From NCBI GenBank assembly GCA_963575745.1, contig CAUYUJ010000270.1, positions 496,001 through 560,000 on the forward strand: a stretch of DNA of 64,000 nt. Reading direction: 5' to 3'. Below, in pieces: positions 2,583 through 32,545 of the stretch. The position numbers and the translations under genes were made by a program. The notes under the pieces were generated by a model that saw only the letters and a program-made list of their open reading frames with translations, was not told the origin of the DNA and ran no database searches. This DNA is from Prorocentrum cordatum (lineage: Eukaryota). The number at the start of each line of letters is the position of its first letter. The stretch's first letter is position 1.

Positions 2583-2765
2583 GAAACACTGCTTTCGATA
2601 ACGGTATCTCCAAATGAGATCTTTGTATAAATGCATTGAGGTCTAAACAAGACACTGCTATCAACGGATGTGATTCCAAACGAGACACTGCTATCAACGG
2701 GTTGAGCCTCAAACGACACACTTGCATCAATGAGTGTAGCTCCAAAACAGGCACTCCCATGAATG
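2583..2765. repeat. Diverged ~33-bp minisatellite, ~5 units
   Basis: aaac(a/g)agacactgctatcaacgg at ~2645 and ~2678, plus degenerate neighbours. Confidence 0.75.
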
Positions 2766-2781
2766 GATTTAGTGTGATGTC

Positions 2782-3163
<382 letters not shown>

Positions 3164-6530: not shown

Positions 6531-6801
6531 TGAGTTTGACAGGGGTTAGGAGGCCCAACCAGCAGCTTCGCCTAAGGCGAAGCCCATATCCAACTCTGCT
6601 GCGCCGTGGTCCCGAAAATCCCAGAAGTAGGAGATCGTCGCGGGAGCGACGGGCCATGTCGAACGAATCTGTTTTCGGTCTCAACGGCAAGTGGTGTGCC
6701 TCGCGATGAGGCGCAATCATTGGCGGTCGGCCGCTTGACTACAAACGGCCACGGACACACCCTCACTATCTCTCGCCTTTGCCCCAGCTCCCTTTAGAGT
6801 C
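6531..6801 (-). repeat. Putative 3' LTR
   Basis: Aligns by eye (roughly 80% identity) with 24183-24453, including the identical core tcccagaagtaggagatcgtcgcgggagcgacgggccatgtc; ends ...CA on the minus strand. Confidence 0.7.
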
Positions 6802-6862
6802 GGGGGGGAGGAGACGAAGCGTGACTCCGCCGCCCGCTATACAGTAAACACTATATACACAA

Positions 6863-8952
6863 TTATCCCGACAAAGCAACCTAACAGCGATGTGTAGAAG
6901 CATATCTGGAAGCATTCCCCTTAAGATTCAGATGATAATCCAGTTGTAGAATTCTGCTGTTCTCGTAGTCGCAGTCGCATTCGCGATGACAGTCGCAGTG
7001 ACAACGGCAGTCGCAGTCACAGCCTCAGCCTCAGCCTGCCTCAGCCTCAGCCTCAGCCTCAGCCTCAACAGCCTCAGCCTCAGCCTCAGCCTCAGCCTCA
7101 GCCTGCCTCAGCCTCAGCCTCAGCCTCAGCCTGCCTCAGCCTCAGCCTCAGCCTCAGCCTCAGCCTGCCTCAGCCTCAGCCTCAGCCCTCAGCCTCAGCT
7201 CAGCCTCAGCCTCAGCCTGCCTCAGCCTGCCTCAGCCTCAGCCTCAGCCTGCCTCAGCCTCAGCCTCAGCCTGCTTCAGCCTCAGCCTCAGTCTGCCTTC
7301 AGCCTCGGCCTCAGCCTCAGCCTGCCTCAGCCTCAGCCTGCATCAGCCTCAGCCTCAGCCTCAGCCTGCCTCAGCATCAGCCTTCAGCCTCAGCCTCAGC
7401 CTGCCTCAGCCTCAGCCTCAGCCTGCTTCAGCCTCAGCCTCAGTCTGCCTTCAGCCTCGGCCTCAGCCTCAGCCTGCCTCAGCCTCAGCCTGCATCAGCC
7501 TCAGCCTCAGCCTCAGCCTGCCTCAGCATCAGCCTGCCTCAGCCTCAGCCTCAGCCTGCCTGAGCCTCAGCCTCAGCCTCAGCCAGCCTCAGCCTCAGTC
7601 TGCCTTCAGCCTCAGCCTCAGCCTCAGCCTGCCTCAGCCTCAGCCTCAGTCTGCCTTCAGCCTCGGCCTCAGCCTCAGCCTGCCTCAGCCTCAGCCTCAG
7701 CCTGCCGCAGCATCAGCATGCCTGAGCCTCAGCCTGCCTCAGCCTCAGCCTCAGCCTGCCTCAGCCTTAGCCTCAGCCTGCCTCAGCCTCAGCCTCAGCC
7801 TGCTTCAGCATCAGCCTGCCTCAGCCTCAGCCTCAGTCTGCCTCAGCCTCAGCCTCAGCCTGCTTCAGCCTCAGCCTCAGCCTCAGCGTCGGCCTCAGCC
7901 TCAGCCTGCCTCAGCCTCAGCATGCCTCAGCGTCAGCCTCAGCCTCAGCCTCAGTCTCAACCTGCCTCAGCATCAGCCTGCCTCAGCCTCAGCCTCAGCC
8001 TGCCTCAGACTCAGCCTCAGCCTGCTTCAGCCTCGGCCTCAGCCTCAGTCTGCCTTCAGCCTCAGCCCAGCCTCAGTCTGCCTCAGCCTCAGCCTGCATC
8101 AGCCTCAGCCTCAGCCTCAGCCTGCCTCAGCCTCAGCCTGCCTGAGCCTCAGCCTCAGCCTCAGTCAGCCTCAGCCTCAGTCTGCTTCAGCCTCAGCCTC
8201 AGTCTGCCTTCAGCCTCTGCCTCAGCCTCAGCCTGCCTCAGCCTCAGCCTCAGCCTGCATCAGCATTCAAAATGTGGGCCGGGATGGGAATTTTGGAAAC
8301 TCGAAGAACACGAAGTGGCCTACAGTTGGCTCTGGGCATTCAAAATCATACCCAGGAATGGAGTTCTGGGAACTCGAAGACCACGAAGTGGCCTACAGTT
8401 GGCTCCGGGCATTCAAAATCATGCCCACAAGTGGAGTTCTGGGAAGTCGAAGAGCACGAAGTGGCCTACAGTTGGCTTCGGGCATCAAAAATGTGGCCCG
8501 GGAATGAAGTTCTGGGAAGTCGTAGAGCACGAAGTGGCCTACAGTTGGCTCTGGGCATCCAAAATGTTGCCCGGGAGTGAAGATCTGGGAACTGGAAGAA
8601 CACGAAGTGGCTTACAGTTGGCTCCGAGCATCCAAAATGTGGCCCGGGAATGGAATTCTGGGAAGCCGAAGAGCACGAAGTGGCTTACAGTTGGCTCCGA
8701 GCATCCAAAAGGTGGCCCGGGAATGGAGTTCTGGGAAGTCGTAGAGCACGAAGTGGCCTACAGTTGGCTCCGGGCATTCAAAATGTGGCCCGGGAGTGGA
8801 GTTCTGGGAGGTCGAAGAGCACGAAGTGTGGGACTGAGCCCGGCCCTGAACCCGGCCCTCGCTGTCCGGATGCCGCCTAGACCTCCCTTCTGAGTCATCA
8901 GATGCTCTCTTTTGACACCATTAGAAACCTATCAATCTTCGCTGTTAGGTAA
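6863..8952. mobile_element. Family 1, copy 3 ((CTCAGC)n 7019-8262; 73-bp satellite 8262-8828, ~8 units), nested in the copia 3' region
   Basis: TTATCCCGACAAAGCAACCTAACAGCGA ... TCGCTGTTAGGTAA. Confidence 0.8.
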
Positions 8953-9139
8953 AAAAGGCAGCAACAGGCGGGTTCAAAAGGAAGGTTGACCCACACGCAA
9001 GTGCCCTTTGCACGCAAGTTGCCTTGCGAGCAGATCGCCCTGCAGGCAAGTATTCCTCAGGCGGCCTCAGACGATGTTGTCTGGCCAGCCCAGCACGGAC
9101 TATGAGGTTTTACATCGTGCTTGAAGGATCGCGTTCCTC

Positions 9140-9700
9140 CCATGACCTGTAAAAGCAAATATATGTAACTGATTCCTTTGCGGTGGCCGTCCACAGTCAT
9201 GTCGCGAGTGTCGCACCGCTGTATACGATGCACGACACCTCGTTCCATTATCTGTCGTATCCAACTGATGTGTCCCAAAAGACTACACTCGGTCGGATTA
9301 TCAGGTTTTGACTTGACAAGGACGTGAAGTCAGATTCCACATCTGTGGTCAAAGTGACATTAATCCTTAATGCTCAGGCCGCCCATCTCCAGTAGATCCT
9401 TCAACTGAGTGGCTGCCAGCGGCCCTGCGTGGAATTCGTGCAGGGTGACGATCGTGAGATAGCAGTCCTCCAAGTTGTGGGCTGCTGCTAAGTGTTTCTG
9501 CTGAGTAGCTCGAGCGGACCTGCAAGCGGTGAGACTCGCAGGACGCATCGATAAGATGGACGACAGGCGCACCAGCAGGCGTGTTTCCATAGCCTTTGAC
9601 CTCGTCATCAGCAGCTCCATTCAGGCGTCGATAGCCGGAGTCGCTGCGCAGGTCGACCTCGCCCGTTGGAGTCATCGGTCGGCAGATGCTCTTCTTAGGG
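9140..9700 (-). pseudogene. Copia-type RNase H, frameshifted
   Basis: Motifs SDSGY, VVHLIDASCESHRLQVRSSYSAET(L)AA, GHISWIRQIMERGVV..IQRCDTRDMTVDGHRKG (cf. copia S...E..A and M.AD.LTK). Confidence 0.8.
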
Positions 9701-9799
9701 CAGGCCTGCAACTTCCTGGTAATCGCGCTCAGTCGTCGCACCTGTCTGTCGGTCGGTTCTTGGACACGTTGTAGGAGAACAACATATACCATCAAACAC

Positions 9800-10650
9800 G
9801 CCTGCGTGACTAATCCGCAAGCCAACGCGCCTCTGAGGCTGACAAACACGTCAGTGACTAGATTGGATGCCTTGGCGTCTGCGTCTGCGCCAGTGAATTC
9901 AGGATGTTGTATTGGGCGGGGCTGTTTTATGTACTCGTCTTGACCAAGTGCAACGTTGCCATCTCCATCCCCTTGCATAGCTCACAGCACAACTTGTATA
10001 TGTATGTCTGTTGAATTTACATGCGCCAAATGCATCCTCAACGCGATTAACGCACCTGTCGACGGTGCAATCGGTGCCGGCCGAATGAATATCATCAACG
10101 CGCTTGGCTGCGAGAAGGTTGTTGCTTGTCTCGAACTCCTCGTCGTAAGACGTGGTCGCCCTGAGCTTCAGTGGGAACGTTCTAGGCGCATCCTTGGCGC
10201 CGGTACCTGGCTCGAGGCACTGCAAGCAGTGCTTCGACTCATCATCGCAGCGCTCGAATCCTGGGGGGGGGGGGGGGTCGAAGCGCGGGCGCTGATCCAG
10301 GCGGCAGCGCAAAGCACGCCGCGCTATCCTTTTTCACTGGTTGCTTCAGCCAGTTCCTGACTGGTCAGTCCCTTCAGGGAAGCCTTGTTGTTGTCAAAAG
10401 AGGCAAAGATCCGTCGCCTCCTGCACGCTGCCGCGTTTGCGAGCAGTCTCTGACTTGATCGCCGAGCCGCGCCCGAGAAAGTTTCCACGCCGAAGGCTTC
10501 GAGGTCCGTTGTTTGACGCCTTTGATGCATCTGGCGCCTTGAAACATTTGTTGCCAGACAATGTCTTGAGCTCAGTGTAGAGGGCCTTAAATGCCTTGAC
10601 TGGATTCGCCTGAATGACGGCCTGCGCGAGGAGGTCGCCCTCCTTGACGA
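9800..10650 (-). pseudogene. Copia-type reverse transcriptase, frameshifted
   Basis: ETFSGAARRSSQRLL, ASFDNNKASLKG (D...AFL.G), GTGAKDAPRTF (YGL.DAPR.W), AAKRVDD (HVDD with CAC>CGC). Confidence 0.85.
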
Positions 10651-11599
10651 CCGCAGCTCGTTTGGCAGCAGCGGCCGCATATACTCGCATAGCGGTCGCA
10701 CGGTCGACGTCTAGCATCCCGTGTTGTTGTTCCGATAAGACTACCTTTGACATGTCTGTCGCAAAGCAAAGCTGTATATATTGACCTTTTTCGTCAGAGT
10801 CCAATCCGTGAGTATCGTCTTCGTCCGTGGAGCAATGGGACATGATATGCCTCCATAGTGTTGGAGTCGCGTGGATGGCCCCATGTAGGCAGGTGCACCC
10901 GCTGTTCGTCAGCCACAGTGACCAGCGCACTGTTGTCGGCGATCATCTGCGCGGGTACAGTGTAGAGGTCGTCTAATGAAGTTGTCTCCAGTAGTCCCTT
11001 TTCCTGATGTAGTTCTGAGTGCCCCACATCTATAATCTGCGCCTCAAGGTCCGCCTGCGGCTCCCCATAATTAGTGGGACGCCGTCCGCCCTCCCACGGT
11101 GGTTTGGCTTCTGGAACTTCTCTGGCGTCGTTGTTTTGCGTCGGTGCGTCTGCCAGCCCCTCGAACTTCGCCATGTCTTGGTCGAAGCCCGCTTGAGGTT
11201 TAGTGGACTTCTGGCATTGGATGATCCTCGAATGTGCTGATCCGGTTATATCATGTATATTTAGGGCAGTGCCTTCGGCTTCGTAATAGTGAAATCCTGG
11301 ATCCACGTCGTTGCCATTGTGCACCAGCGTACACCTGTCAGAATAAGCCACCCGGGGTACTCCGTGGACACTCTTAGCTTACCTGACAGAGACTACGGTC
11401 TCGATGCGAAAGAAGCTCCTGATGAGGCATTGGAGAACTAAGTACCTTAGGAGATAGTCGGCTCGCACTTGTCACATGAAGCGTTCGGTTTTTGGTCGGA
11501 GCGTAGCCGAGCGTCATGGCAGGTCACCCCACAAGTAGACTGGCTATAAGTGTCAACGCCGTCCGTAGTGCAGCGTCGTCTGCGCCAACCTCTCGGGCT

Positions 11600-12301
11600 G
11601 ACAAAGCTTCGATGCATCATGTCGTGCGTCGCCGTACTGGACTTGTACATCGCGGTTTCCCACTCGGGAATAACTTGGCCCCTGTCGGGGTCGTTCCGCG
11701 CGACCGGGAAAGGGCCGTTCCAGCCTCCCCAGTCATCCTTCGTAGTCGCGGGGCGATGATAGTCAACCGGATCTCCTTCATCATCGTTGTGATGACCCGT
11801 GATGGTGGTCATGGTCCGCAGTGCACGGATGGTTCTGACTACTGCAATGGCTTGTGTGATAGCCTCAATGCATGCCCGGCAGATCATCTGCCCCCGAGAG
11901 TGATCGGATGTTTCTGCATGCTGATCGTGGCCCAGAGCAGGCAGGTCGGGCAGCATCGCCGGTCGCCGTCCAAGCAGGGCGCTGCATGAAAACACCTCGA
12001 TGTAAACAAGTAAACGCACTGGCGGCAAATAAGGCTTCGTGCAGTAGTCGCGCGAACACAAGAGGGCTGTCTAACATTTTGTGTCCAGCCCCCATGACGT
12101 GAAGAAAGTGTCCTAATATGCCGTTTACGGCTTCAACTGTCGCAGCGCGTTGCCCACGCGCGCGTATTCTTAGCGTGGCGCCCTTTGCCTGAAAGGCTGC
12201 CTTTGCGGCGTCGTCGTTAAGAGCGCCCTCCCCGTCGGAGTAGACTACTTTGCCAGGTCCGAATTGTATCCAGAACTGGTGGTATGCATCTAAGATGCTG
12301 G

Positions 12302-12339
<38 letters not shown>

Positions 12340-12700
12340 GTATCTCGTTTCCAGTGGCAGATCGGATGCAACGACCAAAAATGTGAAATGGATTGTGTTC
12401 CTGTGTGTAGAACATTAAGCCGCATTCAACTTTTTCATTGAACTTGCAAGGCAGCGCAGTGGATGACATCACGGTGCGCCCTGGCTCGCCCCAAGCCCTG
12501 CACTCCCGACATGCGTCACAGACGCCCTCGACCAAGTGAAGCCTGACGTTCCCCAGACCAGCCTGGTTAAGATGAATCGCGTATTGGGCTCTTTGGCGTG
12601 GAACCACCGCAAGTGTAGCTTGCGCAACTCGCGTGTTGCCACGCTTGGGTCAAGGCTACGTGGGTTCTGTAGACAAATCTGTACATCCAACCTTGACCAG
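11600..12700 (-). pseudogene. Integrase (HHCC, DDE core, downstream SH3-like segment), interrupted by (TA)n at ~12305-12335
   Basis: ELRKLHLRWFH...VCDACREC; WIQFGPGKVVYSDGEGAL; RARGQRAATVE; GDPVDYHRP...GGWNGPFPV. Confidence 0.8.
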
Positions 12701-13429
12701 TCTGGCAGTCGTGGACGAGCAGCAGGGTCACCCGCAGGGTGGTGGTGGAAGTGGATCTCCTCCTTGCTGCCGACCTCGCGTGGCTCTGATATGTGGCAGC
12801 GGTCTGCGGCCGTCCGAGCTGCCCGCCCCCCTCGAGGCAGGTTGCCCTGCAGCTGGTTCAGCAGCATGTCTGCCTACTATAGTGTCGTGGCTGCTGGCGC
12901 CTGCCGTAAGTCCAGCTCTCGAGCCGGGTCTCGGCGATCGTAGCCGTGCAGGTGGAGCGGATGGCGCCTCGGGCGCGGCTGCCGCCGCAGGTGGTTGCGC
13001 TGCCGGCTCGGCAGGAACAAGAAGTTCCTGTCCGTGGTTGTCGGGCAGTTTCCACGACTTGGTAAACTTGCACATGCCCGGCGTAAGTGAGTGACCAGGT
13101 TCAACCTGGCCGTAGTTCTTCTTGCAGCTTTGACGCTCACAGCGGTAATCCTCCTTGTCGTACCACCCACAGTGTTTGGGGCCCCTGTTATGTGAAGGGG
13201 GATGCATGATGGCGCTGTCTGCACATGCAGGACACCCCCATCTTCCCGAGGGTGGCCCCATCATCGAACCGTTGGGGGTGCCGAGGGATAGCTGGGCTAT
13301 CCAAGTCGGATTCTCGCATGTTGGGGACGAGAAGAGAAGATTAATGATGATGATCATGGAAGGGATCACGATTCACTAGCAACAGATCGCGTGCAATTTG
13401 AACTGCGTCGAGGAAGAGGGACTACATCT

Positions 13430-13995
13430 TCGGAGTGTATTGGGCAGCCCTGGCCAGCTGCTTGCTACAAGCCGAGGCATGTTGATGGCGGCCCGTGCGC
13501 AATTTCCTCTCGAAGGGCGCAATCTGTTCACGCATGAATGCCACATGAGAGTCACGGGGGCCCGTCGTACATTGGTCCATACTAACTTTGCATGTGCCCT
13601 TGAAATTGGCCAATGTGGTCCATGGTGCTATATCGCCTGCCTGAGTGCCTGCCGGTTGCCCTCGTTGGCGAAGCCGTCGGAAGTCTTTTTGACGCACGGC
13701 AAACCTTCCACAACACTTGATATGTAGGAGGTATTCCTAATGGTGTTCATGCCACGTATCATAGTTGACTTTAGAATTGAAATAAGATGGTAGCCCAGTT
13801 GTTCTGCAATTGGGTAACATAACAACGTCGCCGAAGCACGCATCCAAATAATGTATCGCTGCGTCCTGGACATCCTTGTTTCCAAGGTCAACATATGAAC
13901 GTTCATCGAGGTTTCCACCAGAGAAAAAGCCCCGGCTGAAAGCTAACTGCGACATTTCCCAATTGCCTCCACATGGTTCCAGCATGTCTGCCTTG
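13430..13995 (-). pseudogene. C5 DNA-methyltransferase-like domain within the copia pol region, degenerate
   Basis: MLEPCGGNWEMSQLA (motif I-like), DVVMLPNCR (motif IV PxC-like), RGQPAGT (motif VI-like), VSMDQCTTG (motif VIII-like), in the expected order. Confidence 0.55.
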
Positions 13996-15799
13996 TTATG
14001 TCGGCCGTAACACAAGGTAAGGAGAACAAATATGCATGCGCATCCGCGCGCAGCACTGCTGGTAGCTTGATGAAGGCCCCCTCGTCGTCGTGACTGGTGG
14101 CGTCGGCGTCGAGGGGAACGTCGGTGCAGTAAGCACCGCGCCCAGGGCCCTGCAGGTCTTCACCGCAGTCGTCGTTGTAGTCTTCGACTACTTTGGGTAT
14201 CTTGCGCGGTTTGATGCTGGCTTCTTCATCAGCTCTATGATTTTCCTGTTGCTTTGTCCGGGCATCCGTTTGCAATGCTGTCGGTTGTTCTGCGTCGGGC
14301 GAAGTCAGTGTCGGGAATTCGGGGGCCGGGGGGGGCGCGCGGCCGCGCTCAATCGAGGGGGGGGAAGACGATCGTCATGAACGATCGCAACCCGCCTTGG
14401 GCGCGGTCGCTGGCCCTCGCGCCCGAGCAGGACTGGCGCCGGAGGCCCCCAGGACAATCGAGCACAGATATTCGTCGCACCGTTCGGTGAAGGTGCATTG
14501 TAGATATACCCGATAAGTTGATCCTGCATCTTAACGTCTTGCATAACAGTATTGTCGCCAAGATTCATTGTCACCCGTCTTGCGACATGGCCCCATTCAC
14601 GGCCGTTCTGAGGAGACAGAACGTAAGTTCGAGCTTCCTTGTCCACTCTTGCGTGGACACTGATGTGTACAGCACTTGTATAGTTTCTCTGGTTTGTGGG
14701 AATTTATATGGTCGATTAGCCTTGCAATCATGATGGCACATGTTTTGTTTCGCCATTCCGTCCTCTGGGCGCCCTGGCCATGCCAATCTAACTCATGCTC
14801 AGCATGTCGTGCGGCCCCCCTGCAGCTTGGCGCGTGCACATCCGCAAGTTGGTCGGGATGCGCGCGTAGGCGGTCGCCACCTCCAGGTAGGAACCGCCGG
14901 GTAAACTACTCGACGGGCAAACGTCAGACCGAAGTGGCAACGTCGCGTACGCATGACCTGTTCCTCTTCTGCGGCGGCCACGCAGCCGGGTCCACCGCTG
15001 TCCCTGGCGGCCGCGCAGCCGGGTCCGCCGCTGCCCCTGGCGCGCGCAACCGGAGCCTGGGAAAAGTATGCACGTGCCCCCGCGCCTGAAAACAGAACCT
15101 CAGTGTTCGGCCTGTCTGGGCAAGCGCGAGCGGCCGCGGCGCGAGCCTTCCCCCGTCATTCGTTTTCAAGCGATGGGGGCGTCCAAACGCCAGTGCCATG
15201 GACCGCTGAGCCACTGACCGAAGTAAAGATGTCAAACTTCGCGGCAGTGTTGCTCACTGCAGCAGGTGCCCCCAGAGCGTTGCCAGGCGGCGCCCACTTG
15301 CTGCCCTCTTCATAGATGGCCTGAAAGACCTTCGCCTGCAAATTGCGCAAAGCGAACTCCTGATCGGCAAGCGTAGGGGCGTTCCCATGCGCCGTGTTCC
15401 TGCGATACCAGGTCTTGAGGGCGATGTTCACCAAAGACTGGATCGCGTCGGAAAACGTCTCCTCATGGAGGGAGAAGCGGGTGCCCCCGGCGCCCTGGGA
15501 AATCATGCGCGCGCTGGCATCGCTAGTAGCGGGTGCCCCCGCATTGCCCGAGGCACGTTGCCCTGCAATCGGCGCTGCATCAGCTGCCTCCGTGACCAAC
15601 GCGGGCGTTTCCTCGCGTTGGGGATTGGCCGTGGCAGTAAGCACCCTAAGCCATTTGCCTCTGTTGCGACTCCATACTCGTCGTCTTCGATCGCCAGGTG
15701 TCCCGATGCCGTCTTCATCAAGACCAGTACCCTGGCGCCCTTGCCAAGGGGGGGCCCGCGCATCTCTGAGCCGGGGATGGCCATCTTCTCGTGCCCCCG

Positions 15800-16150
15800 C
15801 CCAAGGATCAGGGCGGCGCGCGTGTTAGCCGCGCCCCTTAAACCCAGAATTGCAGGGAGGTGTTCGCCGGATCCCTCTGCCACATTGGCCGAATCTGTAA
15901 CCAACCTGACAATCGCGGGCTTCCGCGCGGAGCCGCCCCCTCCTTCGCGCGCGACCTTGCAGCGCAGTGATTCGTCGCAGATGGCGGCCCCATGCCCCGC
16001 GCCGCACGCGCGCGGCCTCTTCGTCAGGTTCAGCTTCTTGATGTCGTGTCCGCGGGGGCGGGAGACACTTTCGAATGTCTGTGCAGTTTCCAGACCAATG
16101 ATGTTGATGTTGCTGCCGATGTCAAATAGGGTAGTCAACGTGCCATCTAC
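15800..16150 (-). pseudogene. Retropepsin-like aspartic protease
   Basis: TLFDIGSNINIIG active-site-like motif, glycine-rich flap GAGHG, C-terminal LPAILGL (in ORF 15503-16510). Confidence 0.75.
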
Positions 16151-16892
16151 CATGGTCCCACTGTTCGCTGCCAAGGCTGACTCGCGTCGTTCTCCGAACA
16201 TACCTGGCGCGTCGGGCAACGTTGCGCCGCGGGTGCCTTCGCGGCGCCTACGCTCCAACACCCGCTGGTTCGTGTGCCCCCTGGCTTCCTCCTCTGCGAT
16301 GGGATGCCTCTGGAATGTCCAGGCAGACGGGTACTCGTCATACATGTGGGGATGTTGTGGAGAATGCGGCGCGTTCTCCAAGGTATCATCGTCGGCGCGC
16401 ACTGCAATCTGTCCATCCGCACTGACCGCCAGCACCGCGCGCAGCAAATCACGCACCGCTACGCGCGCTCGCTGGGATTTCGGTTCTGCGCGTGCGTAGC
16501 GGGCGGTCATATGGCATGCTGCCCCAGGGTGCTTGAAGCCAGCGCGCGCTCCTTTCAGTGGCCCTCTCTATGCGCCTCAGCCACTGATCATTGGCGGGTG
16601 GCCCTGCTGGTGCTGCCGCGGCAAGAGCCCCTGCCGTATCTTCTGATTCGGCTACCAGAGGCATCGGCGCATCAGCGGCGGGCATCGTGATCATTGCATT
16701 CTGCCCCACATTGGACGATGAAGCAGTTTGCCCTGTAGATGTGGCCGGCGACCCGGCAGCAACGGTAGCGCCTGTCATTATCGCCGTGCTGCGGCCCAGC
16801 TCTTCACGGAGATCTCTGAGTTCACCTGCCTCGCGGAATATTGCATCATGTCGACCCGCTGCGTTGCGACTCCCAGAAAGGGCATCATGAAA

Positions 16893-17685
16893 TTCTAGAC
16901 GCTTCGCGCATCCCCACCAGCCCATTCAGGAAAGATGTCCAGGCGAGATGAGGTGATCAGTGAAGTGTGGCAGCAAAGAGGAGGGCGGCCGAACCGCGCA
17001 AACGAGCGAGGGGGAGAAGCACGAGGTGGATGGATGAATGGGTGAGGGCGCGGGAAGGAGGACGAATGGGATGAGGAGGAGGCGGGGGGGGGGGGGAGGA
17101 GATAGAGAAGGAGCAGGAGCAGGAAGGAGGAACAGGAGGAGGAGTAGGGCAAGCACAAGGGCCAGAGGTCTCTTGGATGCCTCTCGGAGCCTCTTGGGGT
17201 ATCTCTCGGGCGATTATTGGTGGCCTCTTGGGGCGTCTTGGGGGTCTCCTGGCGATCCTGGGGGACTCTCCGGGGTCTTGGGTGCCTCGGCGGGGGCCTC
17301 TTGGGGCCGCTGAGGGTCTTCTTGGGGGCCTCCTGGCGGCCTCTTCGGGGCCCTTTGGGGCCATCTTGGGGCCGTCTTGGGACCTCTCGGGCCACCCAGG
17401 GTGCTTCTTTGCGCCATCTTGGAGGAGATGTATCAAAGAAGAGCGGGACTTCAATTGCGGTTGCCCCCCCAGGAGGTCACAATGGGGCCAAAACAATAGT
17501 AACATCAATGAGATTGGCTTCCTCGCCGAGGCCGGTTTGGACGCTCTGACCGCTCGCGGCCCCCCACGCCCAGGTCCAAGGGGAGGGGGCGGGGGGGGGG
17601 GGGGGCGAACCCACCCTCGAAGGGGAAGAGGGAAGGGCGGAAGAGGAAACGGCCTAAACCACCGACGCCCAGAGGGCTGGCGGGA
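16893..17685 (-). mobile_element. Non-autonomous family 3, copy 1 (subTIR, hairpin, CTAGAA end), inserted in the copia ORF
   Basis: Minus strand: TCCCGCCAGCCC ... GGGCTGGTGGGGA-tgcgc-gaa-gcgt-CTAGAA. Removing it restores the frame GLIAAE-FHDAL with no duplication. Homologous to 49078-50608. Confidence 0.8.
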
Positions 17686-17704
17686 CTCAGCTGCGATGAG
17701 GCCT

Positions 17705-17875
17705 ACTCCCCTACATACGGCACATGGTGCCTCGCTCGGGGCGCCTTCCAGCTGCCGATCCACGCGCGCGTGGGCCGCGCGATCCCAGCGCCGCGCGTGA
17801 AATATATGGCCACGCTGGAGCCTCCACACCTTATCGTGGTATACAACGTCTTCCAGGCATATGGCGCACTTGGTA
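17705..17875 (-). pseudogene. RING-H2 zinc finger within the copia element
   Basis: CAICLEDVVYHDKVWRLQ[R]GHIFHAR[R]WD...PCAVCR; the two missing Cys ligands are CGT/CGC codons, one transition from TGT/TGC. Confidence 0.8.
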
Positions 17876-19274
17876 AAACCACCATCGTTGATGATTGGTG
17901 GCGTCGCCGATGGCCTGATGCGCGTCTGTCGCTCAAGTGTGGACTCTGCGATGTCACGCCGACTCGGTGGGACTGCATGCAGGTGCCAATTGCTGCCCCG
18001 CAGGCATTGATCACATAGCAACCGCTGCTGATAAACACATAGCAGGTTGCCCCGCAAGTGCAGGAGCAGCGGGTGCCCCCGCACGATTCATCACACGGCG
18101 TTGCTGTCGCGCCTGCTTGCGGCGTTGGCGAGCCGGTTGCATTTGAAAGATTGGCCTGCTGCGCCTCATGGATGGCCAAAATCTCAGGGCGCAGCTCTCC
18201 CATAGACGAGGGCGCCACGATGTGTGACCTCCTGGTCCATGGGGGCCGCCAGGTATCCGCAGTGGGGCACCTGGCCTGACGCGTCGGGTTCATGCCCAGC
18301 GCCGCGCGTCAGCTGGGACAGATAAAAGTCATCAGCAGTTGCCTGAACGCACGGGTTCTCGGGCTGAATACTAACTCGTGGGACGCCAGTCTCCTGAGCG
18401 AAATAATCAAGGAACATGGGGGCATCCATGGGTGAAGCCGTTGGCCTTTTCAGCAACAATTGGGTCGTGCGTCGGGTGACCGAAGATTGCTGGGACAGAT
18501 CCAAATCGATCAGGAGTATCTGGTGATGGATTCGGATCTGGAATGCATCCCCATGGGGGCGTCCAGCTCGCGCTCGGGAGGTCGATGCCACCCCGCCGCA
18601 TGTTCTGCATGGCCTCGCGCATATGCCTATGCATCCACTGCTGCTGCCCCAAGAGGCTCTCGGTCCACTGGGCAGACTCCTGGTCGGTGGCGGCAGGTTG
18701 CCCCGCAAGGGCACGTGGAGGTGCAAATGGCGATGTCGGTTGAGAGGATTGGTGAAGCTGAGGATTCATCCTGGTACTTTGGAGCCTAGCCTGCAGACCG
18801 TTAGTGCTCCCAGCGCTCTGTGGGGTGCCGTAGGGGGTTGTTGCCCTGCTCGCGGGTGCGAATGTGGCAGAAGGCCTTGTCGGCACAGGCAGCTGCTGCG
18901 CCTGGTTGCGCCACGGGTCGTTCGCGTGCAATCCGCCGTTAGGCGTGGACCCGCTGGATGTCATGCCAGACAGATCAGCGCTCTGAGCATGGATCCATGA
19001 CCCATCCGAGCCCCCTGCAAGTGTCCCTGCTTGGCATGCCTCTTGCACCGAGAAGACAGAGGCACGTTCCACCTCTTGCGCAGGTGTCGAAACAGAGACC
19101 ACGAGGTTATAGGGAGTCCTCGGTACAATCCGCCCCTTCAATGTTGATGCATCGCATGGCCACTCATAGCAAGTCCTCGGTACAGGAGTGGACGCGTGCA
19201 GGTTGCACCGCTGGTCCTCTTCGATATGCAAGTCATTGGCCCACATCTGTCAAAACCGATCGTAGTTGCACTGG

Positions 19275-20045
19275 ACATCCTTAAGCCTGGTGACGATGAG
19301 TTGAACAATGTGGCTCGGCGGAATCCTGCCATTGTTGCCTGGCGTCACAATGACGTCGTTGGCACAGCGCCGAATCGGGATATTGTCGCGACGTAAATTC
19401 TGCAGGACCCCCATGACCAAAACTTCGGACTCTTCGCATGCCAGATTGGACCCGCCCGTCACCAGGTAAGCATGGGCATCCATGAATCATATGCCTGCCC
19501 TTCCCCTCGGTGTTGTCCTCGCTGCGGCGAGAAAGACCGACGTGTAATATGTTCCGGAGATTCGCCCATTTCGCACCGCGAATGAAATGGAAGGGCGCCC
19601 CCGCTTCGGTCAGGTCTGTCACCCGTGAGCATAGGGGGCTCTGGGCACTTAATGCCTGGTCTGCCGTGCCCATTACTAGGGCGCAGGAAGTACGTCGGGC
19701 GGCGTTCTCCGCAGACCTGGAGTTTCTTCACCCGGGGCCTGCTCTTCTGCATGCCTGAGTTGTCGACCATTCCGCAGAGGTCGAACACCGCCAGTGCCTG
19801 ATAGGCCCAGCGCCGGCCTCGGAGGCACCTCTCAATGGCGTCCAAGTAGTTATTGTGCCAATTCTCCATTCTTGCTGGCGGCCAATTTTCCAGCGGGTCT
19901 CCGAAGTCCACCCGGCCGTCGTACTCGTCATATGAGGCGACGCAGCGGATGAAACGGTCGGAGAGCGCATCGTGGTGGAATGGCTCGCGCCGCGTGGCTG
20001 TAGTGAGCCATTCCGAGCAGCGACGCTCATCGGATTCGCTCATTC
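19275..20045 (-). pseudogene. Tpt1/KptA-like NAD+-dependent RNA 2'-phosphotransferase domain, two frameshifts
   Basis: Across three frames: RCSEWLTTATR[R]; DG[R]VDFGD[P]L; FLRPSNGHG; FI[R]G[A]KWANLRNILHVGLSR; GRHMIH..CLPGDGRVQSGMR; SEVLV; NIPIRRCANDVIVTPGNNGRIPP. This is collinear with the Tpt1 motifs LRH, DGWV, IRAxQGHS, HGT, RxHIH, SGMR and SxNGVILTPG..G.IPP. Confidence 0.85.
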
Positions 20046-22429
20046 GCATCGCGCTGACATGCTCATTCTGCAGGACCTGCACTAAGGATCCCCTCGCGGA
20101 CTCGCAGCTGAGAGCAGGCTAGCGGTGCCCAAGGTCCCCCAGCATCGCCGGCTTCCTTCAGCCAGTTCAAGAATAGCAGCGGGTTGCCCCGCAGGAGCAG
20201 CGGCGGGTTCAGCAGGTGCCCCCCCGGGCTCAGGCGCTGCGGGGGCTGCCGATGAGCTGGCGCCCCCAGATGCCTTTACTTTCTCGCGAACGTCGCGGCA
20301 CCGGCGCGCGGTGATTGTCGGGGCAGCACCTGGCGCTGTCGAGGTAGTCTGCAACAGCTTAGCATCCGCGCCGCCCTTCGACGAGGAAGCCCCTCTGGAT
20401 GAACCATCCAATGACGGCGCCCAGCCTGGCCCCCTATGGACAGGGCCAGGCGCCGGGCCGCGCGGGATTGCAGGATCCTACGGCTTAGGCGCGCTGTCGC
20501 CTTGGAACCCTGCTGCTGCCGCGGCCACTGCTGGGCCTCTGGAGCGCTGTCTGCGCGCGGGTTTCCCCGCGGATCTGTAGGACTTGTTGCTCCCAGGATC
20601 AGCGTCAACTGAACCGGTCCTTCTCTCGTGCTTGGCCGGAGCGGCTGCAGGTGATTCCCCGCTGTCTCCTTCGGGGGCATCGGGCCCCTCGGCGGTTTAT
20701 CTGCGGGTGCCCCCGAAGGAAATGGTGCCGCAGGCTGCCCCGCATCGCGAGCTGCTGGCTCGTCTTGCGGAAGCGGGTCTTTTTGCGGGTGAACTGCAAT
20801 TTTCTTGATATTGGCCCTAGTCTTGCATTCCGAATCGCATTTATCAGCGTTGACTCTTCTGCGCGCAGTGGTAGTTATCCAGCCTGCGCGTATGCAACTG
20901 CATTATACTGTCGCACCTGGGGCGGAATCCATGTCCGCTGATATCCGCTTGGAGACACGTCAATCTCGGAGGCGCGCTCCGACTCGGAAAGAGCAGCGAC
21001 AGCAGGACCCACTGCTGCGGCAAGAACCAGAATACCAGCTCCTGCATCACCCTCTGGAAGGCCATGGGAAGAGGAAGCGGGTTGCCCCGCACGTGGTGTC
21101 TCAGCTGCCTCTCCATGAGATTCTCGATTGTATTCCTTGAGGGGGTGATTGCTGTCGAGGTTCTGCCGCGCTCGCTCGATCCGTTTAGCCTCGCCCTCGG
21201 TGATCGACTGGAAATCATCTTTGGCCAAGCAATCTGCGGGGGAATGATTGGCCGGGCCCGCCCTGCGACCCAGGCCATCTCCACGAGACCAGACCCACGG
21301 TGTTCTCAAAATTAGGGCCCCTCGATGGTCGCCCCATCGGACATGCGGGTCTGTGGTCAGAAAAATATTCGCAAGGGCGGACAAAAAGCCGGTGGGCTTC
21401 CTGGCCCCTAATGGTGGCCCTCTCGAGGTCCCCTCTCTCCAGCGCGGGGCCCGTCTTGGCGCCTTGACCCCTGTTGGCGCGGGCGATTTTGCCGCGTTCG
21501 TTCCGCGCGACATCGCGGAGCTCATGCCAGTGGCGGATGTCGCGCTCAGCCCAGCCTCGGTCGAGCCAGCGCTGCACGGCGTTCGGGGGGATCTGCTGGC
21601 GAACCGGCCCGTGATCTTCATAGCTGACCAGGCGCTGCGCGCCTCGCGCATCAGGCTCAGCTGGGCGATCCTCGATCTGAGGCGGGTCTCCCCGCGAGCG
21701 CCCCCTTCTCGGTGGAGTCCTGGGGGCCCTCGCGTCAGGGGGGCGCGGGCGCTGCGCGCCGCTGGAGCGTGCGCGCGAGCGCCCGCGCGATTGACTCCGA
21801 CCGTGACGCTGCGGGCGATGACTCTCAACATCCCATTCATCCTCGCCGTCGTCTGCACGAATCAACCGTCTCCATACTGGGCGGCGCGTGGACCTGTCAC
21901 GCACCGCGAACGTGAAGCGACGGTCCTCGTCGCCCCCAAATTCGAACTGAATGCGCTCGGAAAGTTCGTCGGCATTTCGCGGGTTTCCCAGCGGAGGGTC
22001 GTCGTCGTATAATTCTCTGTCTATCGGATTGCCAATGACCTGCGGGTGGAGCATCAATGACATCTCAGATCCTCCTCTGTCGCTGGAATAATGGCTTCAG
22101 AATCCGCGGGCGCCCCCGCCATGTCGCGGTCTACCTCGGCGGGCACGCGGCAATCCTCGACGAACTCGATCTGCGCGGGTTGCCCCGCGATGGGCATGCC
22201 CAGCCAGTCCGCCAAGTTGATCTCACCGTGGCAAACATAGATCTCCTCCGAAAGATCGCCGGCATATCTCTCGAGGGACATGTTGGCGCTTAGATACCTG
22301 GCGGCTATGAAATGGACAGCGGCAGTAGGGGTGTGTGCGGGGTCGGCTAATAGCGTCTCCCGGAAGACATACTGCGTGTCCGACTCGGTTTGAGCCAAAT
22401 GTATCGACGGACCCCTGCCTCTCCCATCG

Positions 22430-23860
22430 CCTTGGGACATTCACGACGGAAATACTGTGTGCTATGGCAGATGTCACATTCCATGGTTGTGCCGTTCGCA
22501 TCTTTCGGGTTACCCCGACGTCCCATGACCCTTTCCTGCGGTATGCCTGCGGCCTCTACCTGCCCCCAGGAATAGTTATTCGTATTGTGGCCCAGTAAGG
22601 GACGCCAAGAATGCCAACATCTCTACCGTGCAGTCGCCGCCGTTTGCCCTCACCCTTGCCTCGACCCTCGCCCTTCACTCGGAGTGCGCGTCGGATTGTG
22701 CGTCGTACCTCACGAACTGGTTCCTTCATAAAACGTATCCAACGACGCTTGTGTTTCTGGTACTCTACAAACAGCCATTGTGCCGGCTGATTTTTTCCTG
22801 CGATACGTAGGCATGTCGGAATAGTCTAGGACAACAGCTTCGTCATCTGATGGCGCGTCGGTGTCGGAATTCCAAAGGCAAAGTCAGACTCGGCGGGTTG
22901 CCCCGCTGAGCCTGCAAGGGTAGCGGATTGTGTAGGGGCCGCCGATGCCGACGGTCCCTGCGATCTAGCCCAGGAGTCTTGCGACCCCGTAGGCGGGCCA
23001 CCATGTTGGGCTAATAAGGTGGTGGCATCTGTTGGTTGTGGATCATCGTCCCAGACGTTTGCAGCAGGTTGCCCTGCATTGGTCTCAATATAAAAGGCTT
23101 CGGCACGGCGGCAGTGACTAAAGATACCACCCATGTTGCCAGGGGATCGCTCGGCGATGTGGGCATATGACCTCATGCGTTCCAGTAGGGCATCACATTG
23201 TTGCCGCTTCCTCGGCATTTGGTGGTTGAGTGGCTTCAGTACTTGTTGTGCAAGCAACGTCTCCAGTCCAAGAGCCCTGAACAGGCTGGCTTTTCGGATT
23301 TGGAAGTTGGGGGTGTTACAACCTGCGGTCTCAGCCACGTAGCGGGCAATCTCGAAGCGTGCTGACGTCTGGTCGATCCGTTCTCCCGCATGGACTCGAA
23401 AATTGATGGGAACCGTTCCCGGGTTGAGTTGGCGCTCTCCCTCTAAATCTTCAAACTTCGTGCTGAGGGGGAGCGCGATGTAGGTGGCGGCGTCAGTGTG
23501 GCGGTCACCGGCATCAGCGCCAAAATTGATGACTGCGGGGGGTACTCTAATTGCCATGGTCCGCGCGAGCCCTCCCAGGCAGAACTGTAGTGCCGCAGCC
23601 TGTTGGGAAGGGGTCACGGCGCCTGCCGTCACATTGATCCAGGCGTGTACTTCTCGAACGAATTCGCGAAAAAAACACCCGACTGGCAGGGTCCCAGCGG
23701 GGGCCGGTTGTCCTTGTGTCGTCTCCACCACGCTGCATGTGTCCCACAGCACATCCGATAGCGACCCACAGGGGGCCAAAAATAGCAATCCCAATCCAGT
23801 GGCCCCGTAGGTCGTGGTCGGACGTTCGTGGCTGGGGGCTGTGGTGTGTTGTCGTTAGCT
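22430..23860 (-). pseudogene. Gag-like region (ORF 22826-23794) with a CCHC-type zinc knuckle
   Basis: FREFVREVHAW...QQAAALQFCLGGLAR; knuckle NPKDANGTTMECDICHSTQYFRRECP at ~22435-22515; first coding region after the PBS. Confidence 0.7.
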
Positions 23861-24170
23861 TGCGTGGGGGTGGAGGCGGCACAATGTCGCATCGCATGTT
23901 GCCATGCATGGTATCTCCGAACAAGTTCCGACTGGGCGAATTGGAGTAGGAGGGTGGACTTCAGGAGTGTAGTAGCGCAGGGATGCAGGACTCATGAAAG
24001 AGGCCTTCGCGAGAATGGGGGTACCACTGCAAGTGTCCTAGCGGTTGCGCGTAGTTATATACATTCCTCCGCGCAAACCCACTGCACCCTGATGTTCCAT
24101 CCTGTCAGTTGTCGACCAGATAGTGCCGTGGATGGTGAGGAATAGAGCAAGACCTGACCACCATAGGCCA

Positions 24171-24182
24171 GCTCCGCTACCA
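24171..24182 (-). promoter_or_regulatory. Primer binding site, tRNA-iMet type
   Basis: Minus strand TGGTAGCGGAGC directly after the 5' LTR; one transition away from TGGTAGCAGAG, the complement of the initiator tRNA 3' end CTCTGCTACCA. Confidence 0.7.
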
Positions 24183-24451
24183 AGTTCGAAAAGGGGTTGC
24201 GAGGCCCGACCAACAGCTTCGCCTAAGGCTGCCCGTAGCCAATTCTGTTGTACCGTAGTAGCGATAGTCCCAGAAGTAGGAGATCGTCGCGGGAGCGACG
24301 GGCCATGTCAAGCGAATATGCTGTCGGTCTCAATGGCAAGCGGTGTGCCTCGCGATGAAGCGCAATTCTATCTTGGCGGCCGGCCGCTTGAGTACACACG
24401 GCCGCGGACAAACGCTCGCTATCTCTCGCCTTTGCCCCAGCTCTCTTTAGA
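24183..24451 (-). repeat. Putative 5' LTR
   Basis: Direct repeat of 6531-6801, abutting the PBS. Confidence 0.7.
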
Positions 24452-24774
24452 GTCCCTGGTGGCGCGGTGGGACCCGAAACGTTCAGGCATGCAGTGCGTG
24501 CAGCCCCCTCCCCGCTCCTATGCTGGCAACATTCACTTGTTTCTCCTCCTCTTCCTCCTCCTCCTCCTCCTCCTCCTCCTCCCGCACCTCCTCCAAATCT
24601 CATACTCCTCATCCTCGTCAAGTCCCTCAAAAACCCTTGGAGACCTCCCTCGGCACCCTTGCGCGCGCCAGCACACCCCCAGAAATGTTCCTTGGGGGCT
24701 TGGTGGCGCCCCCCGCTGCCGCGCTGGCAATCTCAACCTCCTCCTCCTCATCATCATCCTTCTCCTCTTCCTCC

Positions 24775-26155
24775 TCACTGTGGAGTTGCCACCGACAGCA
24801 CATGCAGAGCGTGCGGGCTGGCACCAGGCACCGACAGGCACCGCACCTTCGCGCGCCCAGTGCGCCAGCCACACCGCGACGTTGTCGGAGGCCTCCATAT
24901 TCAGCAGCGAGGAGCCAACCCCTGGCCAGGCCCAGGAGCCGATGCTCTCTAGGGGCGCGGCATCACGGCCGACCCCGCCGACGAGCTCGGGCTCTGGGGT
25001 GGGAGCTAGCATCGTGCGGCGACTGGCTCACCGAGGGCAACTGGGACGGCCTCGCGACAGGGGACATCTACGTGGACGGCTCGTTGCAGTCGGCGACTAC
25101 GCACCACTGCGACGAGGAGGATGGAGCTTCACCAAGCTCAAAGACTCAAAGACAACGACGAGTACGACATGGACTACGTGTGCTACGGGCCCCTCCCTGA
25201 CGCACAGTGGGTCCAAAGCATCCTGCGGGCGGAGCTCTACGCGCTGCTGCAGGCGTTGCGTGTGGGCACCCCGCCCATGCGCATTTTCACCGACTGCCAG
25301 AACGTCGCCGACGGCGCGATGGCAGGACCAGCGTGGCTCGACAAGAGGAGCCGCCCGCACCTCGACCTCTGGGAGTGCATCTCCCAGGCCATCGCAAAGC
25401 TCGGAGGCCTGGGCCCGCGCACCGTGCAGGTGCTGAAAGTGAAAGCCCACGCGACGCGCACCGAGCGAGCAGCTATCGGGCGCGCGCAGTGGGAGGGCAA
25501 CAAAATCGCTGGTCAGTATGCCAAGCAGGGAGCGCTGTATCATACCCACCCTGTTTGGTGTAGAGAGGCCTACATTCAGAAGTATCGACTGGTTCGGGAC
25601 ATCTTGGAATTCGGAGCCCACATAGGAGTCCTGGGCCGTGACATTGTCGACATTGAGCAGGGCTCGAGTCCGACGGACTCGAACCCCCCCGACCCCCCTT
25701 TGGACCTCCTGGACCTTCCTGGGAACCTGGGGGCGGTCGTGGGCGAGGAGGGCGGGGCCCTGGTGGCCCCTGAGCTCCCTGCCCCGCCCCTGGAGGCCGA
25801 CCTCCCGTCTCGGGCCGCTCTGGACTGGGGGTGCACCAGGGTCGACAGAGCCCAGAGAGCGGGGCACAAAATAGTGACCCGCAACACGTACGTCTTTTGC
25901 CGCAGGTGTGCCAGGTACGCCCGTGACAGGTGGACGGGCCTATTCTCTCCATGTCGCCCCGGGGCCCAAAGGGTGATCGGGGGTAGCCTGACGCGGTTGT
26001 GGAGTGGACTACACCCCTCCACCAACCAGCCCCTATAGGGGCACCTGGAGTCGAGGGTCTGGCTCGGGGACGGCCCGAAGCGGCCCGAGGCTCCCACGGC
26101 ACGAAAGCGTAGGCGGTCGTGATCCGTTTTGGCCCGCACTCATCCGCACTCATCC
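24775..26155 (+). mobile_element. 5'-truncated non-LTR retrotransposon: CCHC finger, RNase H1 and C-terminal zinc finger
   Basis: CRACGLAPGTDRHRTFA[R]P; IYVDGS; QSILRAELYALLQAL; IFTDC; HLDLW; KVKAH; GNKIAGQYAKQGA; HKIV...FCRRC...LFSPC (ORF 25121-26038 plus upstream frames); ends in tandem ccgcactcat. Confidence 0.85.
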
Positions 26156-30400: not shown

Positions 30401-31600
30401 GGCAATCGAATAACGTCGGATCGGTAAGAATCGGCAGGCGAATCGGCAAACATCGGAATCGACGCCCTGCGGCCCGAGCCGAAGCCTGCGCAAAGAAACC
30501 CAAACCGAGGTCGGAATTCGGAACCGAAGTGGATCCAAATCGAAATCCTCGAAATCGAACCGCTTCGGATCGACAAAATAGGAACGGCTCCCGCGCGCGT
30601 GCTCCGAGAGGAGAAGGGGGAGGGGGCGCAGGCGGGCGCGCCGAACAGGGTGCTGGGGCGGCACTCGGGGCCCCGCAAGTTCTGCAGGGCGGAAGGGGTG
30701 ACGGGGAGGGTGGATGGAGGGGAAACAATGGATGGTGGCAGTGGGCGCTTTCAAGTCTTGAAGGTCTGACTTGTGGAAGTAAGTTGGCACCCCTCCCTAC
30801 GGCGGCCAACGCCTCGGCCCCCTCCATTGGCAATGGCGACGTAGGGTGAAAGCGTCAAGACTGGGAGCGGGACCCCCAGCCGCCACTAGGCTGGCAGCTG
30901 CCGAACGGGTGGGTCCTATGATGGTCCCCGCCGGAGCGGCTGAGGCCTATGATGACCTTCGCGAAAGAGGAAAGGGAAAGAAATCGCCCAGTCGCCCGGG
31001 TGGATCGCAACGACGATGCCGTCCGCGATGCGCCCTGGTCCTGAGGTGGGAATTTCTGAAAAGGTAAAGGGTGAACAAACAAAACCGGCACACCCGGTAT
31101 CCCACGGGTAGATAGGGCCTGCACACTCGGTATCCCACGGGGGGGATAAGAATGCGCACGCTAAGCTCAGGTACGGTTTTGTTGCGCCCCCAGCCCCAGG
31201 GACAGCTGCGCCCCACCGAGAGCAAACCCGAAGAGGCGCAAGCACCCCCCGAATCAAAGTCCACCGAGAGCCCGCGTACACTTCAAGGGTCCCGACGAAG
31301 CTCATAAACCGGTAAAAAATCACTGAGGTTCAGAAGTCCTCAATAAACCTCCAGATGCGGAGCTCGGCGGGGTGGGGGGAGGGAAGGAACGGCCGCGTGG
31401 CTTCTTGTTTGCCCCAGGGCACTGGAGGTCTGGGGGGGGGGATAGGGAGGGGGGAAGAGGGGGGGAGGACTCAAGGCTGAACCAAGATGGCTAGAGCCAA
31501 ACTGGATACGGAGAGGGGAAGGAGGGGGAAGTTTCCTCCCTCCTTCCTCCTCGTCACCACTGTGATCCTCCTGTTCCTCCTCGTCATTTTTCCTGCCCTT

Positions 31601-32195: not shown

Positions 32196-32545
32196 GCGAT
32201 GCTGCTGATGCTGATGCTGATGATGATGATGATGATGATGTTCACAACGATGATGCTGATGCTGATGATGGTGAGGTCTGAGATCCCCTGGTGGCCAGAC
32301 GATTCTTTACAGCGAAGCTGTGCGAATAGATTCTGTTGTGTGCAAGCTCGAGCTTCGAAACACGGAGCGGCTCTCGGACCGCTTCACAACGACCCCTGAA
32401 GGATTAATTACAGCACAGGGTGGCACGAGGGCGGGTGTGCTTGAATTGTTGCGGAGCAAGAACGGCCATGGAACGGATCAGCAACAGACCAGGACGATAC
32501 AAACATCTGACTAGGTCTGAGATCCCCTGGTGGCCAGACGATTCT

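Follow-up and report, generated by a model that had tools for sequence, protein, structure and literature searches.

A long terminal repeat (LTR) retrotransposon ordinarily encodes no more than Gag, a protease, an integrase, a reverse transcriptase (RT) and RNase H. What, then, would a Tpt1/KptA-like RNA 2'-phosphotransferase domain be doing inside one? This question is raised by a stretch of 64,000 nucleotides (nt) from Prorocentrum cordatum (assembly GCA_963575745.1, contig CAUYUJ010000270.1, forward-strand positions 496,001 to 560,000), which we analysed over its full length and refer to as the window; positions are counted from its first letter. Our reading, to which we assign a probability of roughly 0.8, is that window positions 19295–20103 are the Tpt1 domain of a dead, giant element of the Ty1/copia type. 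More tentatively, we propose that working members of its family package the enzyme and use it to remove 2'-phosphates from their own RNA.

The Tpt1-like remnant and its intact relatives

The first-pass annotation, made from the letters alone, had placed a Tpt1-like domain at 19275–20045. Homology searches bear this out (tblastn E = 4e-56) and show that its coordinates were correct to within about 60 bases:

19295..20103, minus strand: Tpt1/KptA-like domain remnant, in three frames (tblastn to PF01885 proteins)

Residues 15–284 of the best match from a protein search (P0001, 284 amino acids (aa)) are covered by the minus strand of the window in three frames, with tblastn E values of 4e-56 and 1e-18. 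The segments lie at 20103–19639 (frame −2, 49% identity), 19634–19437 (frame −3) and 19432–19295 (frame −1), with two frameshifts inside the domain, near 19636 and 19435. A word-indexed protein search with a 219-aa piece of the window gave three matches, all three with PF01885; hmmscan scores for that family are 45.9 bits in P0001 and 28.1 and 29.6 bits in the other two proteins (the Pfam gathering cut-off is 26 bits). In EukProt the three (P0001–P0003) are labelled 'Pyramimonas sp.'. By homology that is far above chance, this place on the minus strand is a Tpt1-like coding remnant.

A search for relatives with a 3-row alignment over metagenome contigs yielded three loci (L001–L003) of 199 pattern matches. 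The first, L001, is a metagenome contig of 8,780 nt with one open frame at 820–8778, the product of which (P0156; 2,653 aa, open at the 3' end) carries, in order, a Gag-like part, a CX2CX4HX4C knuckle, PF01885 at residues 1387–1620 (E = 1e-16, 61.8 bits), a RING finger at 2130–2183 and a block reading MDIGSNVNIVG. The first-pass annotation had left it to be seen whether the domain is in frame with Gag, and in L001 a single open frame does run from the Gag-like part through Tpt1 to the protease-like part. P0156 aligns collinearly with the minus strand of the window over 24196–15698 (tblastn). Two further proteins carry the same profile, P0004 (1,627 aa; E = 5e-17, 62.9 bits), which also matches several RING families, and P0005 (524 aa; 59.2 bits). 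Tpt1 occupies the same in-frame place in L001, L002, L003, P0004 and P0005, which share 45–74% identity with one another, and family-specific flanks are conserved on both sides of the domain. The L003 copy is itself broken.

Against these relatives the decay of the window copy can be read motif by motif: LRH has become TRR (codons ACG CGG CGC), DGWV has become DGRV (with CGG) and HGT has become RGA (IRGA contains CGC GGT GCG), and a DPL contains CCG. Of the essential Arg-His-Arg-Arg residues, the window copy has R, R, R and R, the His having been lost to a CGC codon; the Arg of IRA and the Arg of GRxxIH are retained. Our reading of the codons agrees with the earlier proposal that reversal of single transitions restores H, W, L, H and T, the residues found in intact relatives.

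The direction of these changes is an observation in its own right. The five motif-breaking changes that were checked (H to R twice, W to R, T to A and L to P, at 19981–20001, 19891–19923 and 19566–19586 on the minus strand) are all transitions, and each yields a CpG-containing codon (CGC, CGG, GCG or CCG) where relatives have CA or TG. Such a gain of CpG is the reverse of the usual CpG decay.

Damage is spread along the length of the copy. Chained tblastn segments contain 9 frame changes and 10 in-frame stops relative to P0156, and 11 frame changes and 10 in-frame stops relative to a pol protein of the same family (P0163); the whole element in the window has at least 20 frame changes and at least 20 stops. 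Because the catalytic His and the HGT motif are lost and frameshifts and stops are many, the window copy now does nothing: judged by its reading frames, it is a dead fossil that cannot be active. Its value is that the order of a whole element is visible between one LTR pair.

Fold, active site and selection in intact copies

For structural comparison we used the domain of L001 (L001:4927–5739, 271 aa), an intact relative, rather than the broken window copy. An AlphaFold 2 (AF2) model built from an 82-row alignment has a predicted local distance difference test score (pLDDT) of 92.7 and a predicted template-modelling score (pTM) of 0.87. All 21 of the Foldseek matches in the PDB at E ≤ 0.001 are solved Tpt1/KptA structures. 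Mouse and human TRPT1 lead (E of about 1e-12; target-normalised TM scores of 0.79 and 0.75), and the next matches after Tpt1/KptA are PARP and guanylate cyclase chains at E > 0.05. The same relationship can be recovered by sequence: the alignment of P0005 to human TRPT1 (E = 5.8e-12) brings IRAxxGH, HGT and GRxxIH...LPGDxxIxSGxR into register.

In RslTpt1, the residues R16, H17, R64 and R119 are essential, and alanine changes at these positions abolish Tpt1 function (PMC6097658). Mapped to these residues by alignment columns and not by superposition, the columns numbered R28, H29, R133 and R198 in L001 hold Arg in 60/63, His in 58/63, Arg in 70/74 and Arg in 70/75 of the rows of the 82-row alignment that have a residue there. 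The first-pass annotation had singled out this tetrad, and its survival is divided: L001, L002 and P0005 retain all four residues, and the window copy lacks the His. From these sequences and the model we consider the domain to be probably an active enzyme in the intact copies.

The first-pass annotation had also suggested a comparison of substitution rates and a phylogeny against host Tpt1. L001 and L002 are intact copies with 73% amino-acid identity. Between them, the ratio of nonsynonymous to synonymous substitution rates (dN/dS) is 0.147 across 256 codons of the Tpt1 domain (bootstrap range 0.096–0.218; dS 0.87; Nei–Gojobori method) and 0.62 across 211 codons of the preceding linker (0.42–0.93). 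The Tpt1 domain is under purifying selection between these two intact copies. A quick maximum-likelihood tree of the 57 of 82 rows that fill at least 170 domain columns places five element-borne rows, together with P0031 and P0046, on their own side of a branch that splits them from 50 other Tpt1-like rows (Shimodaira–Hasegawa-like approximate likelihood ratio test (SH-aLRT) support 99). Of ten proteins that were looked up, two are named, and both lie among those 50: a 2'-phosphotransferase of Cladocopium goreaui and a yeast KptA-family protein. The tree is unrooted and therefore names no donor. On the sequences compared, the Tpt1 domain is an old cargo of the family, with its own clade apart from cellular Tpt1.

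These results bear on the simplest alternative, which is that a host Tpt1 gene was captured once, as a retrocopy private to the window. In keeping with a processed pseudogene, the window copy lacks introns and has decayed, but the domain sits at the same in-frame place, between conserved flanks, in all five of the divergent relatives named above (L001, L002, L003, P0004 and P0005); it belongs to a clade of its own, far from a dinoflagellate cellular Tpt1, and its dN/dS is about 0.15. We rejected a private retrocopy on the combined strength of the shared place, the conserved flanks, the separate clade and the low dN/dS, and regard it as extremely improbable. The one-off retrocopy of a host gene that the first-pass annotation had named as the outcome that would undo its proposal is thus not what was found; homology instead supports Tpt1 as an integral, in-frame part of a Ty1/copia-type family.

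The 17.9-kb element and its surroundings

The element that carries the remnant is about 17.9 kb in length and lies on the minus strand at about 6541–24454. It is ordered as an LTR, a primer-binding-site (PBS)-like sequence, Gag with its knuckle, Tpt1, RING, a protease-like part, an integrase-like part, an RT of RVT_2 type, RNase H, a 2.1-kb satellite insert and an LTR. Apart from the Tpt1 remnant, its parts are as follows, in the direction of the minus strand.

24192..24454, minus: 5' LTR core repeat, a direct repeat with 6541–6801; the true start may be 25–30 nt further upstream, near 24485
24171..24182, minus: PBS-like site TGGTAGCGGAGC, 3–4 nt after the 5' LTR
21076..24196, minus: Gag-like region, decayed (tblastn with P0156 residues 61–1087, 30–46% identity)
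22478-22437, minus: zinc-knuckle remnant CDICHSTQYFRREC; CX2CX4HX4C in intact relatives
18147..19294, minus: family-conserved linker without a known domain (tblastn with P0156 1561–2049; the tail of P0003 matches 18821–18726)
17686..17970, minus: RING finger, with the Cys/His motif at 17868–17707 (tblastn with P0156 2097–2191, 51% identity)
16840..17685, minus: low-complexity, Pro-rich insert that the intact relative lacks, seen as a gap in the P0156 chain
15650..16453, minus: protease-like end of open reading frame 1 (ORF1), with FDIGSNINIIG at 16126–16094
13284..14901, minus: N-terminal part of pol without a recognised domain (tblastn with P0163, P0168 and P0169)
11669..12765, minus: integrase-like region (tblastn with P0163 720–1075, 38–56% identity), with CxxC at 12523–12491 and SDGEGALN at 12242–12216
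9971..10888, minus: RT of RVT_2 (Ty1/copia) type, frameshifted (tblastn with P0157 19–343 and other pol proteins), with KDAPRTF at 10195–10175 and VDDI at 10105–10085
9063..9969, minus: C-terminal part of the RT and RNase H-like end of pol; ORF 9370–9981 matches P0157
6852..8958, no strand given: tandem satellite (period 73 nt) that separates pol from the 3' LTR; not at that place in L001
6541..6801, minus: 3' LTR core repeat, a direct repeat whose start may reach about 6830; L001 707–733 matches 6818–6793

The LTR pair consists of 265-nt direct repeats with 85% identity that bracket the whole collinear region; they were detected by self-blastn and had been missed by a repeat search with a seed of 14 and a minimum length of 60. 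The 5' LTR immediately precedes the PBS-like site and the point at which homology to ORF1 of L001 begins, and the 20-mer at 24186–24167 that holds TGGTAGCGGAGC is 100% identical to L001 1010–1029, just before ORF1. This site would be expected to pair with the 3' end of an initiator tRNA-Met. No tRNA gene is present in the 64-kb window.

Within ORF1, the Gag-like region breaks into four frame segments with eight in-frame stops (tblastn with P0156); no Pfam Gag family matches it or P0156. The RING ORF of the window matches zf-RING_11 at E = 0.0018, and the corresponding finger at residues 2130–2183 of P0156 scores 33.8 bits for zf-RING_11 and 29.5 bits for zf-RING_2, both over the Pfam cut-offs. 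Located about 500 residues after Tpt1 in the same polyprotein, it is a second unusual cargo for a copia-type element. The protease-like region has 33–34% identity to P0004 1132–1433 and P0156 2368–2653 (tblastn). The position that the first-pass annotation had given for the Tpt1-like domain, between the Gag knuckle (22478–22437) and the protease motif D-I-G-S (16126–16094) and within an LTR pair, therefore holds.

Its assignment of a copia-like carrier holds too, through pol. Four pol proteins of about 1,950–1,990 aa (P0160, P0163, P0168 and P0169) align collinearly with window positions 14901–9063, and RVT_2 (PF07727) was found by hmmscan in 10/10 aligned relatives (E = 2e-12 and 47.6 bits at best, where the cut-off is 31.6). 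ORF 9370–9981 matches P0157 at E = 9e-67 with 70% identity, and 10 of its 15 matches to long proteins are annotated with PF07727; an Atlas search with the same ORF pointed weakly to RVT_2 (score 0.90, with the family annotated in 11% of members). The integrase-like region lies upstream of the RT and has H..H, CxxC, D, D(G)E and E motifs. For this region the Atlas language model gives a lead only, with 22/30 matches of P0163 700–1100 in the rve set (score 0.94).

That all of these parts once formed one unit is central to our reading, and it has a competitor: the Gag–Tpt1–RING frame could be a host gene or a separate element that came to lie beside a copia pol through nesting or assembly. The window copy does contain foreign inserts (the satellite at 6852–8958 and the low-complexity stretch at 16840–17685), L001 is a metagenome contig, and no intact record with both ORF1 and RT was seen. 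Yet the two parts are oriented alike and stand in the expected order within a single LTR pair, and ORF1 carries a retroviral-type zinc knuckle with a PBS-like site directly upstream. L001 itself begins with the 3' end of pol (nt 55–439, an RNase H part, 75% identical to window 9589–9198), from which an LTR-like stretch of about 300 nt leads to the PBS-like site and then to ORF1, and each of these pieces is homologous to the window. This succession argues that pol and the Tpt1-bearing frame belong to one kind of element, and we consider separate units to be very unlikely.

Several observations weigh against our reading. The first concern the domain itself. The profile check suggested by the first-pass annotation succeeded for the intact relatives, which exceed the PF01885 cut-off of 26, and failed for the window, where 0/3 frame pieces match even at E ≤ 10; in phmmer searches of the PDB, the N-terminal window piece has no match and the C-terminal piece has a sole match, human TRPT1 (7yw3), at E = 0.17. 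The identification of Tpt1 thus depends on the relatives. Another family member, P0012, also has RGA instead of HGT, and as this is common to P0012 and the window, the NAD+ site may be changed or missing in some members of the family. The dN/dS estimate rests on the single pair L001/L002, because dS is saturated in every pair that includes L003 or the window.

The remaining points concern the carrier. The LTR ends are imprecise: there are no matching 5-nt flanks around the LTRs that would mark a target-site duplication and no clear TG...CA ends, the blurring being due to the 15% divergence between the repeats. No Pfam protease family is found in P0156 at E ≤ 0.1 or in the window ORFs, so the identity of the protease rests on the D-I-G-S motif in a conserved block. 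For the integrase, Pfam rve was found in 0/10 relatives and a PDB profile search gave 0 matches, and an AF2 model of the region (7-row alignment) has a pLDDT of 47 and is unusable. Among the window's own minus-strand ORFs between 8.9 and 24.7 kb, no Pfam Tpt1, RT, integrase, protease or Gag family was found; Pfam scans of the window covered 99 ORFs of at least 45 aa (E ≤ 0.05), 16 ORFs and 12 ORFs (E ≤ 10), and a further scan covered 74 hand-chosen ORFs of the 295 of at least 110 aa, from 1–39 kb; the one match nearby was RNase_H on the plus strand, at 25010–26035. Finally, the link between ORF1 and RT is made by the decayed window copy and by L001, without a single intact record of both, and the pol–LTR–gag junction of L001 may stem from elements in tandem, from a circle with one LTR or from a collapsed assembly. 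With these points taken into account, we still hold the architecture and the family membership to be very likely.

Other features of the window were noted in passing. The 73-nt satellite and associated repeats of about 1.1 kb occur at five places (6852–8958, 230–1780, 3425–3957, 46333–49078 and 50606–50984) with 78–90% identity, and 16892–17447, within the low-complexity insert, is related to 49371–50609 in reverse orientation (69–79% identity, self-blastn). Just outside the 5' LTR, on the opposite strand, a 342-aa open frame at 25010–26035 (plus strand) matches RNase H (PF00075) at E = 4e-6, its 27.3 bits exceeding the cut-off of 25.8, and may be part of another retroelement. An uninterrupted frame of 1,434 aa without a Pfam match lies at 32549–36850 (minus strand); a frame that overlaps it, 33163–34647, resembles Phage_integrase weakly, with E = 5e-4 and a score under the cut-off. 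Positions 32274–32395 and 32513–32634 form a perfect direct repeat of 122 nt. One match, with three mismatches, to the dinoflagellate spliced-leader 21-mer is located at 31491–31511 (minus strand), where 0.02 matches would be expected by chance; it hints weakly at a relict spliced leader and at a dinoflagellate host.

A proposed role and its precedents

What could such a domain do for a retrotransposon? Tpt1 enzymes transfer internal RNA 2'-phosphates to NAD+ and can also ADP-ribosylate 5'-phosphate ends (PMC6182162, PMC12678800, PMC10622864). Encoded on the Gag side of the polyprotein, the domain would be produced in an amount equal to that of Gag and would enter the virus-like particle. Inside the particle it would strip internal 2'-phosphates with the help of NAD+, marks of the kind that would arise when cleaved RNA is resealed by an enzyme of the tRNA-ligase type. 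Its targets would be the genomic RNA of the element or the tRNA primer, and the removal of 2'-phosphates would keep reverse transcription unblocked. A second option would be the ADP-ribosylation of 5'-phosphate ends of RNA or cDNA.

We propose the removal of 2'-phosphates from the element's own RNA as the selected role only tentatively. The full sequence of events, in which intact members package a working Tpt1 because host endonuclease cleavage and resealing leave 2'-phosphates that block reverse transcription, is somewhat less secure again, and we would call it doubtful. If it were true, no earlier retroelement would have been shown to bring along an RNA-repair enzyme of its own, and RNA 2'-modification would become a testable host barrier to retrotransposition. 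Ty1 and HIV-1 need the 2'-5' debranching enzyme Dbr1, an old requirement that lacks an explanation (PMC6039765); a connection between that requirement and a barrier of 2'-phosphates is speculation.

The same retained domain could serve a different end. Tpt1 may have been kept as an ADP-ribosyltransferase (ART) in conflict with the host, capping or marking the 5'-phosphate ends of nucleic acids or acting with the RING finger on host factors. Tpt1 enzymes ADP-ribosylate 5'-phosphate ends of DNA as well as of RNA (PMC6182162, PMC12678800), and most viral domains of the ART superfamily have been interpreted as conflict factors (PMC9503650). The conserved RING about 500 residues downstream in the same frame would fit such a role, as would the long branch of the element-borne clade and its N-lobe insert, which is absent from cellular enzymes. 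However, intact copies retain all four residues for the two-step 2'-phosphotransferase reaction, the nearest structures are bona fide tRNA 2'-phosphotransferases, and any functional tie between RING and Tpt1 would be conjectural. We regard such a role, which is the main rival to RNA repair, as unlikely.

A selected Tpt1 and a RING in a Gag-side polyprotein point to an unrecognised step of retrotransposition or an unrecognised host barrier, in which ADP-ribosylated ends or 2'-phosphates on RNA would be involved. What Tpt1 does beyond the splicing of tRNA in fungi and plants has yet to be settled (PMC6573784, PMC6097658), and this family of elements is a new natural setting in which to study Tpt1 function.

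Compared with cellular Tpt1, TRPT1 and KptA (reference structures PDB 7yw2, mouse; 7yw3, human; 6e3a; 8tg3; and 1wfx), the L001 domain is modelled with the same two-lobed fold, and intact copies keep Arg-His-Arg-Arg. Unlike the free-standing cellular enzymes, it resides within a retrotransposon polyprotein, between Gag and RING; it has about 55–60 extra residues in the N lobe (271 aa compared with 180–206) and falls into a separate, long-branched clade.

Copia elements of dinoflagellates offer a second comparison. The SmTCL elements of Symbiodinium have integrase upstream of RT, RNase H and LTRs, and are about 10 kb in length (PMC5776459). Like such Ty1/copia elements, the element described here has an LTR pair, a PBS-like site, a Gag knuckle, an RVT_2 RT with a candidate integrase-like region upstream of it, and RNase H. 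It differs from SmTCL in its length of about 17.9 kb, in an ORF1 that in its relative reaches at least 2,653 aa and in the additional Tpt1 and RING, cargo of which the available text of PMC5776459 makes no mention for SmTCL; and it differs from usual Ty1/copia elements in a putative integrase and a putative protease that are too divergent for Pfam.

The closest parallels are viral. According to a survey from 2022, KptA occurs in jumbo phages, sawfly nucleopolyhedroviruses and Bodo saltans virus, and inside the polyproteins of a Botrylloides leachii nidovirus and Beihai picorna-like virus, where it was interpreted as processing or repairing RNA ends (PMC9503650). The L001 model matches viral KptA in BFVD, including a nidovirus 1ab protein (E = 8e-9) and giant-virus proteins (about 9e-12). 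In both settings a selfish replicator whose genome has an RNA stage carries KptA within its own polyprotein. The viral carriers are DNA viruses or depend on an RNA-dependent RNA polymerase, whereas the carrier here is an LTR retrotransposon, with the domain on the Gag side. The words retrotransposon and retroelement have no mentions in the survey, and literature searches on Tpt1/KptA and on dinoflagellate copia elements, judged by titles, abstracts and excerpts, turned up no Tpt1-bearing retrotransposon. As far as these searches extend, what is new is a Ty1/copia-type element with unusual enzymatic cargo, and its nearest precedent is the KptA carried in the polyproteins of RNA viruses.

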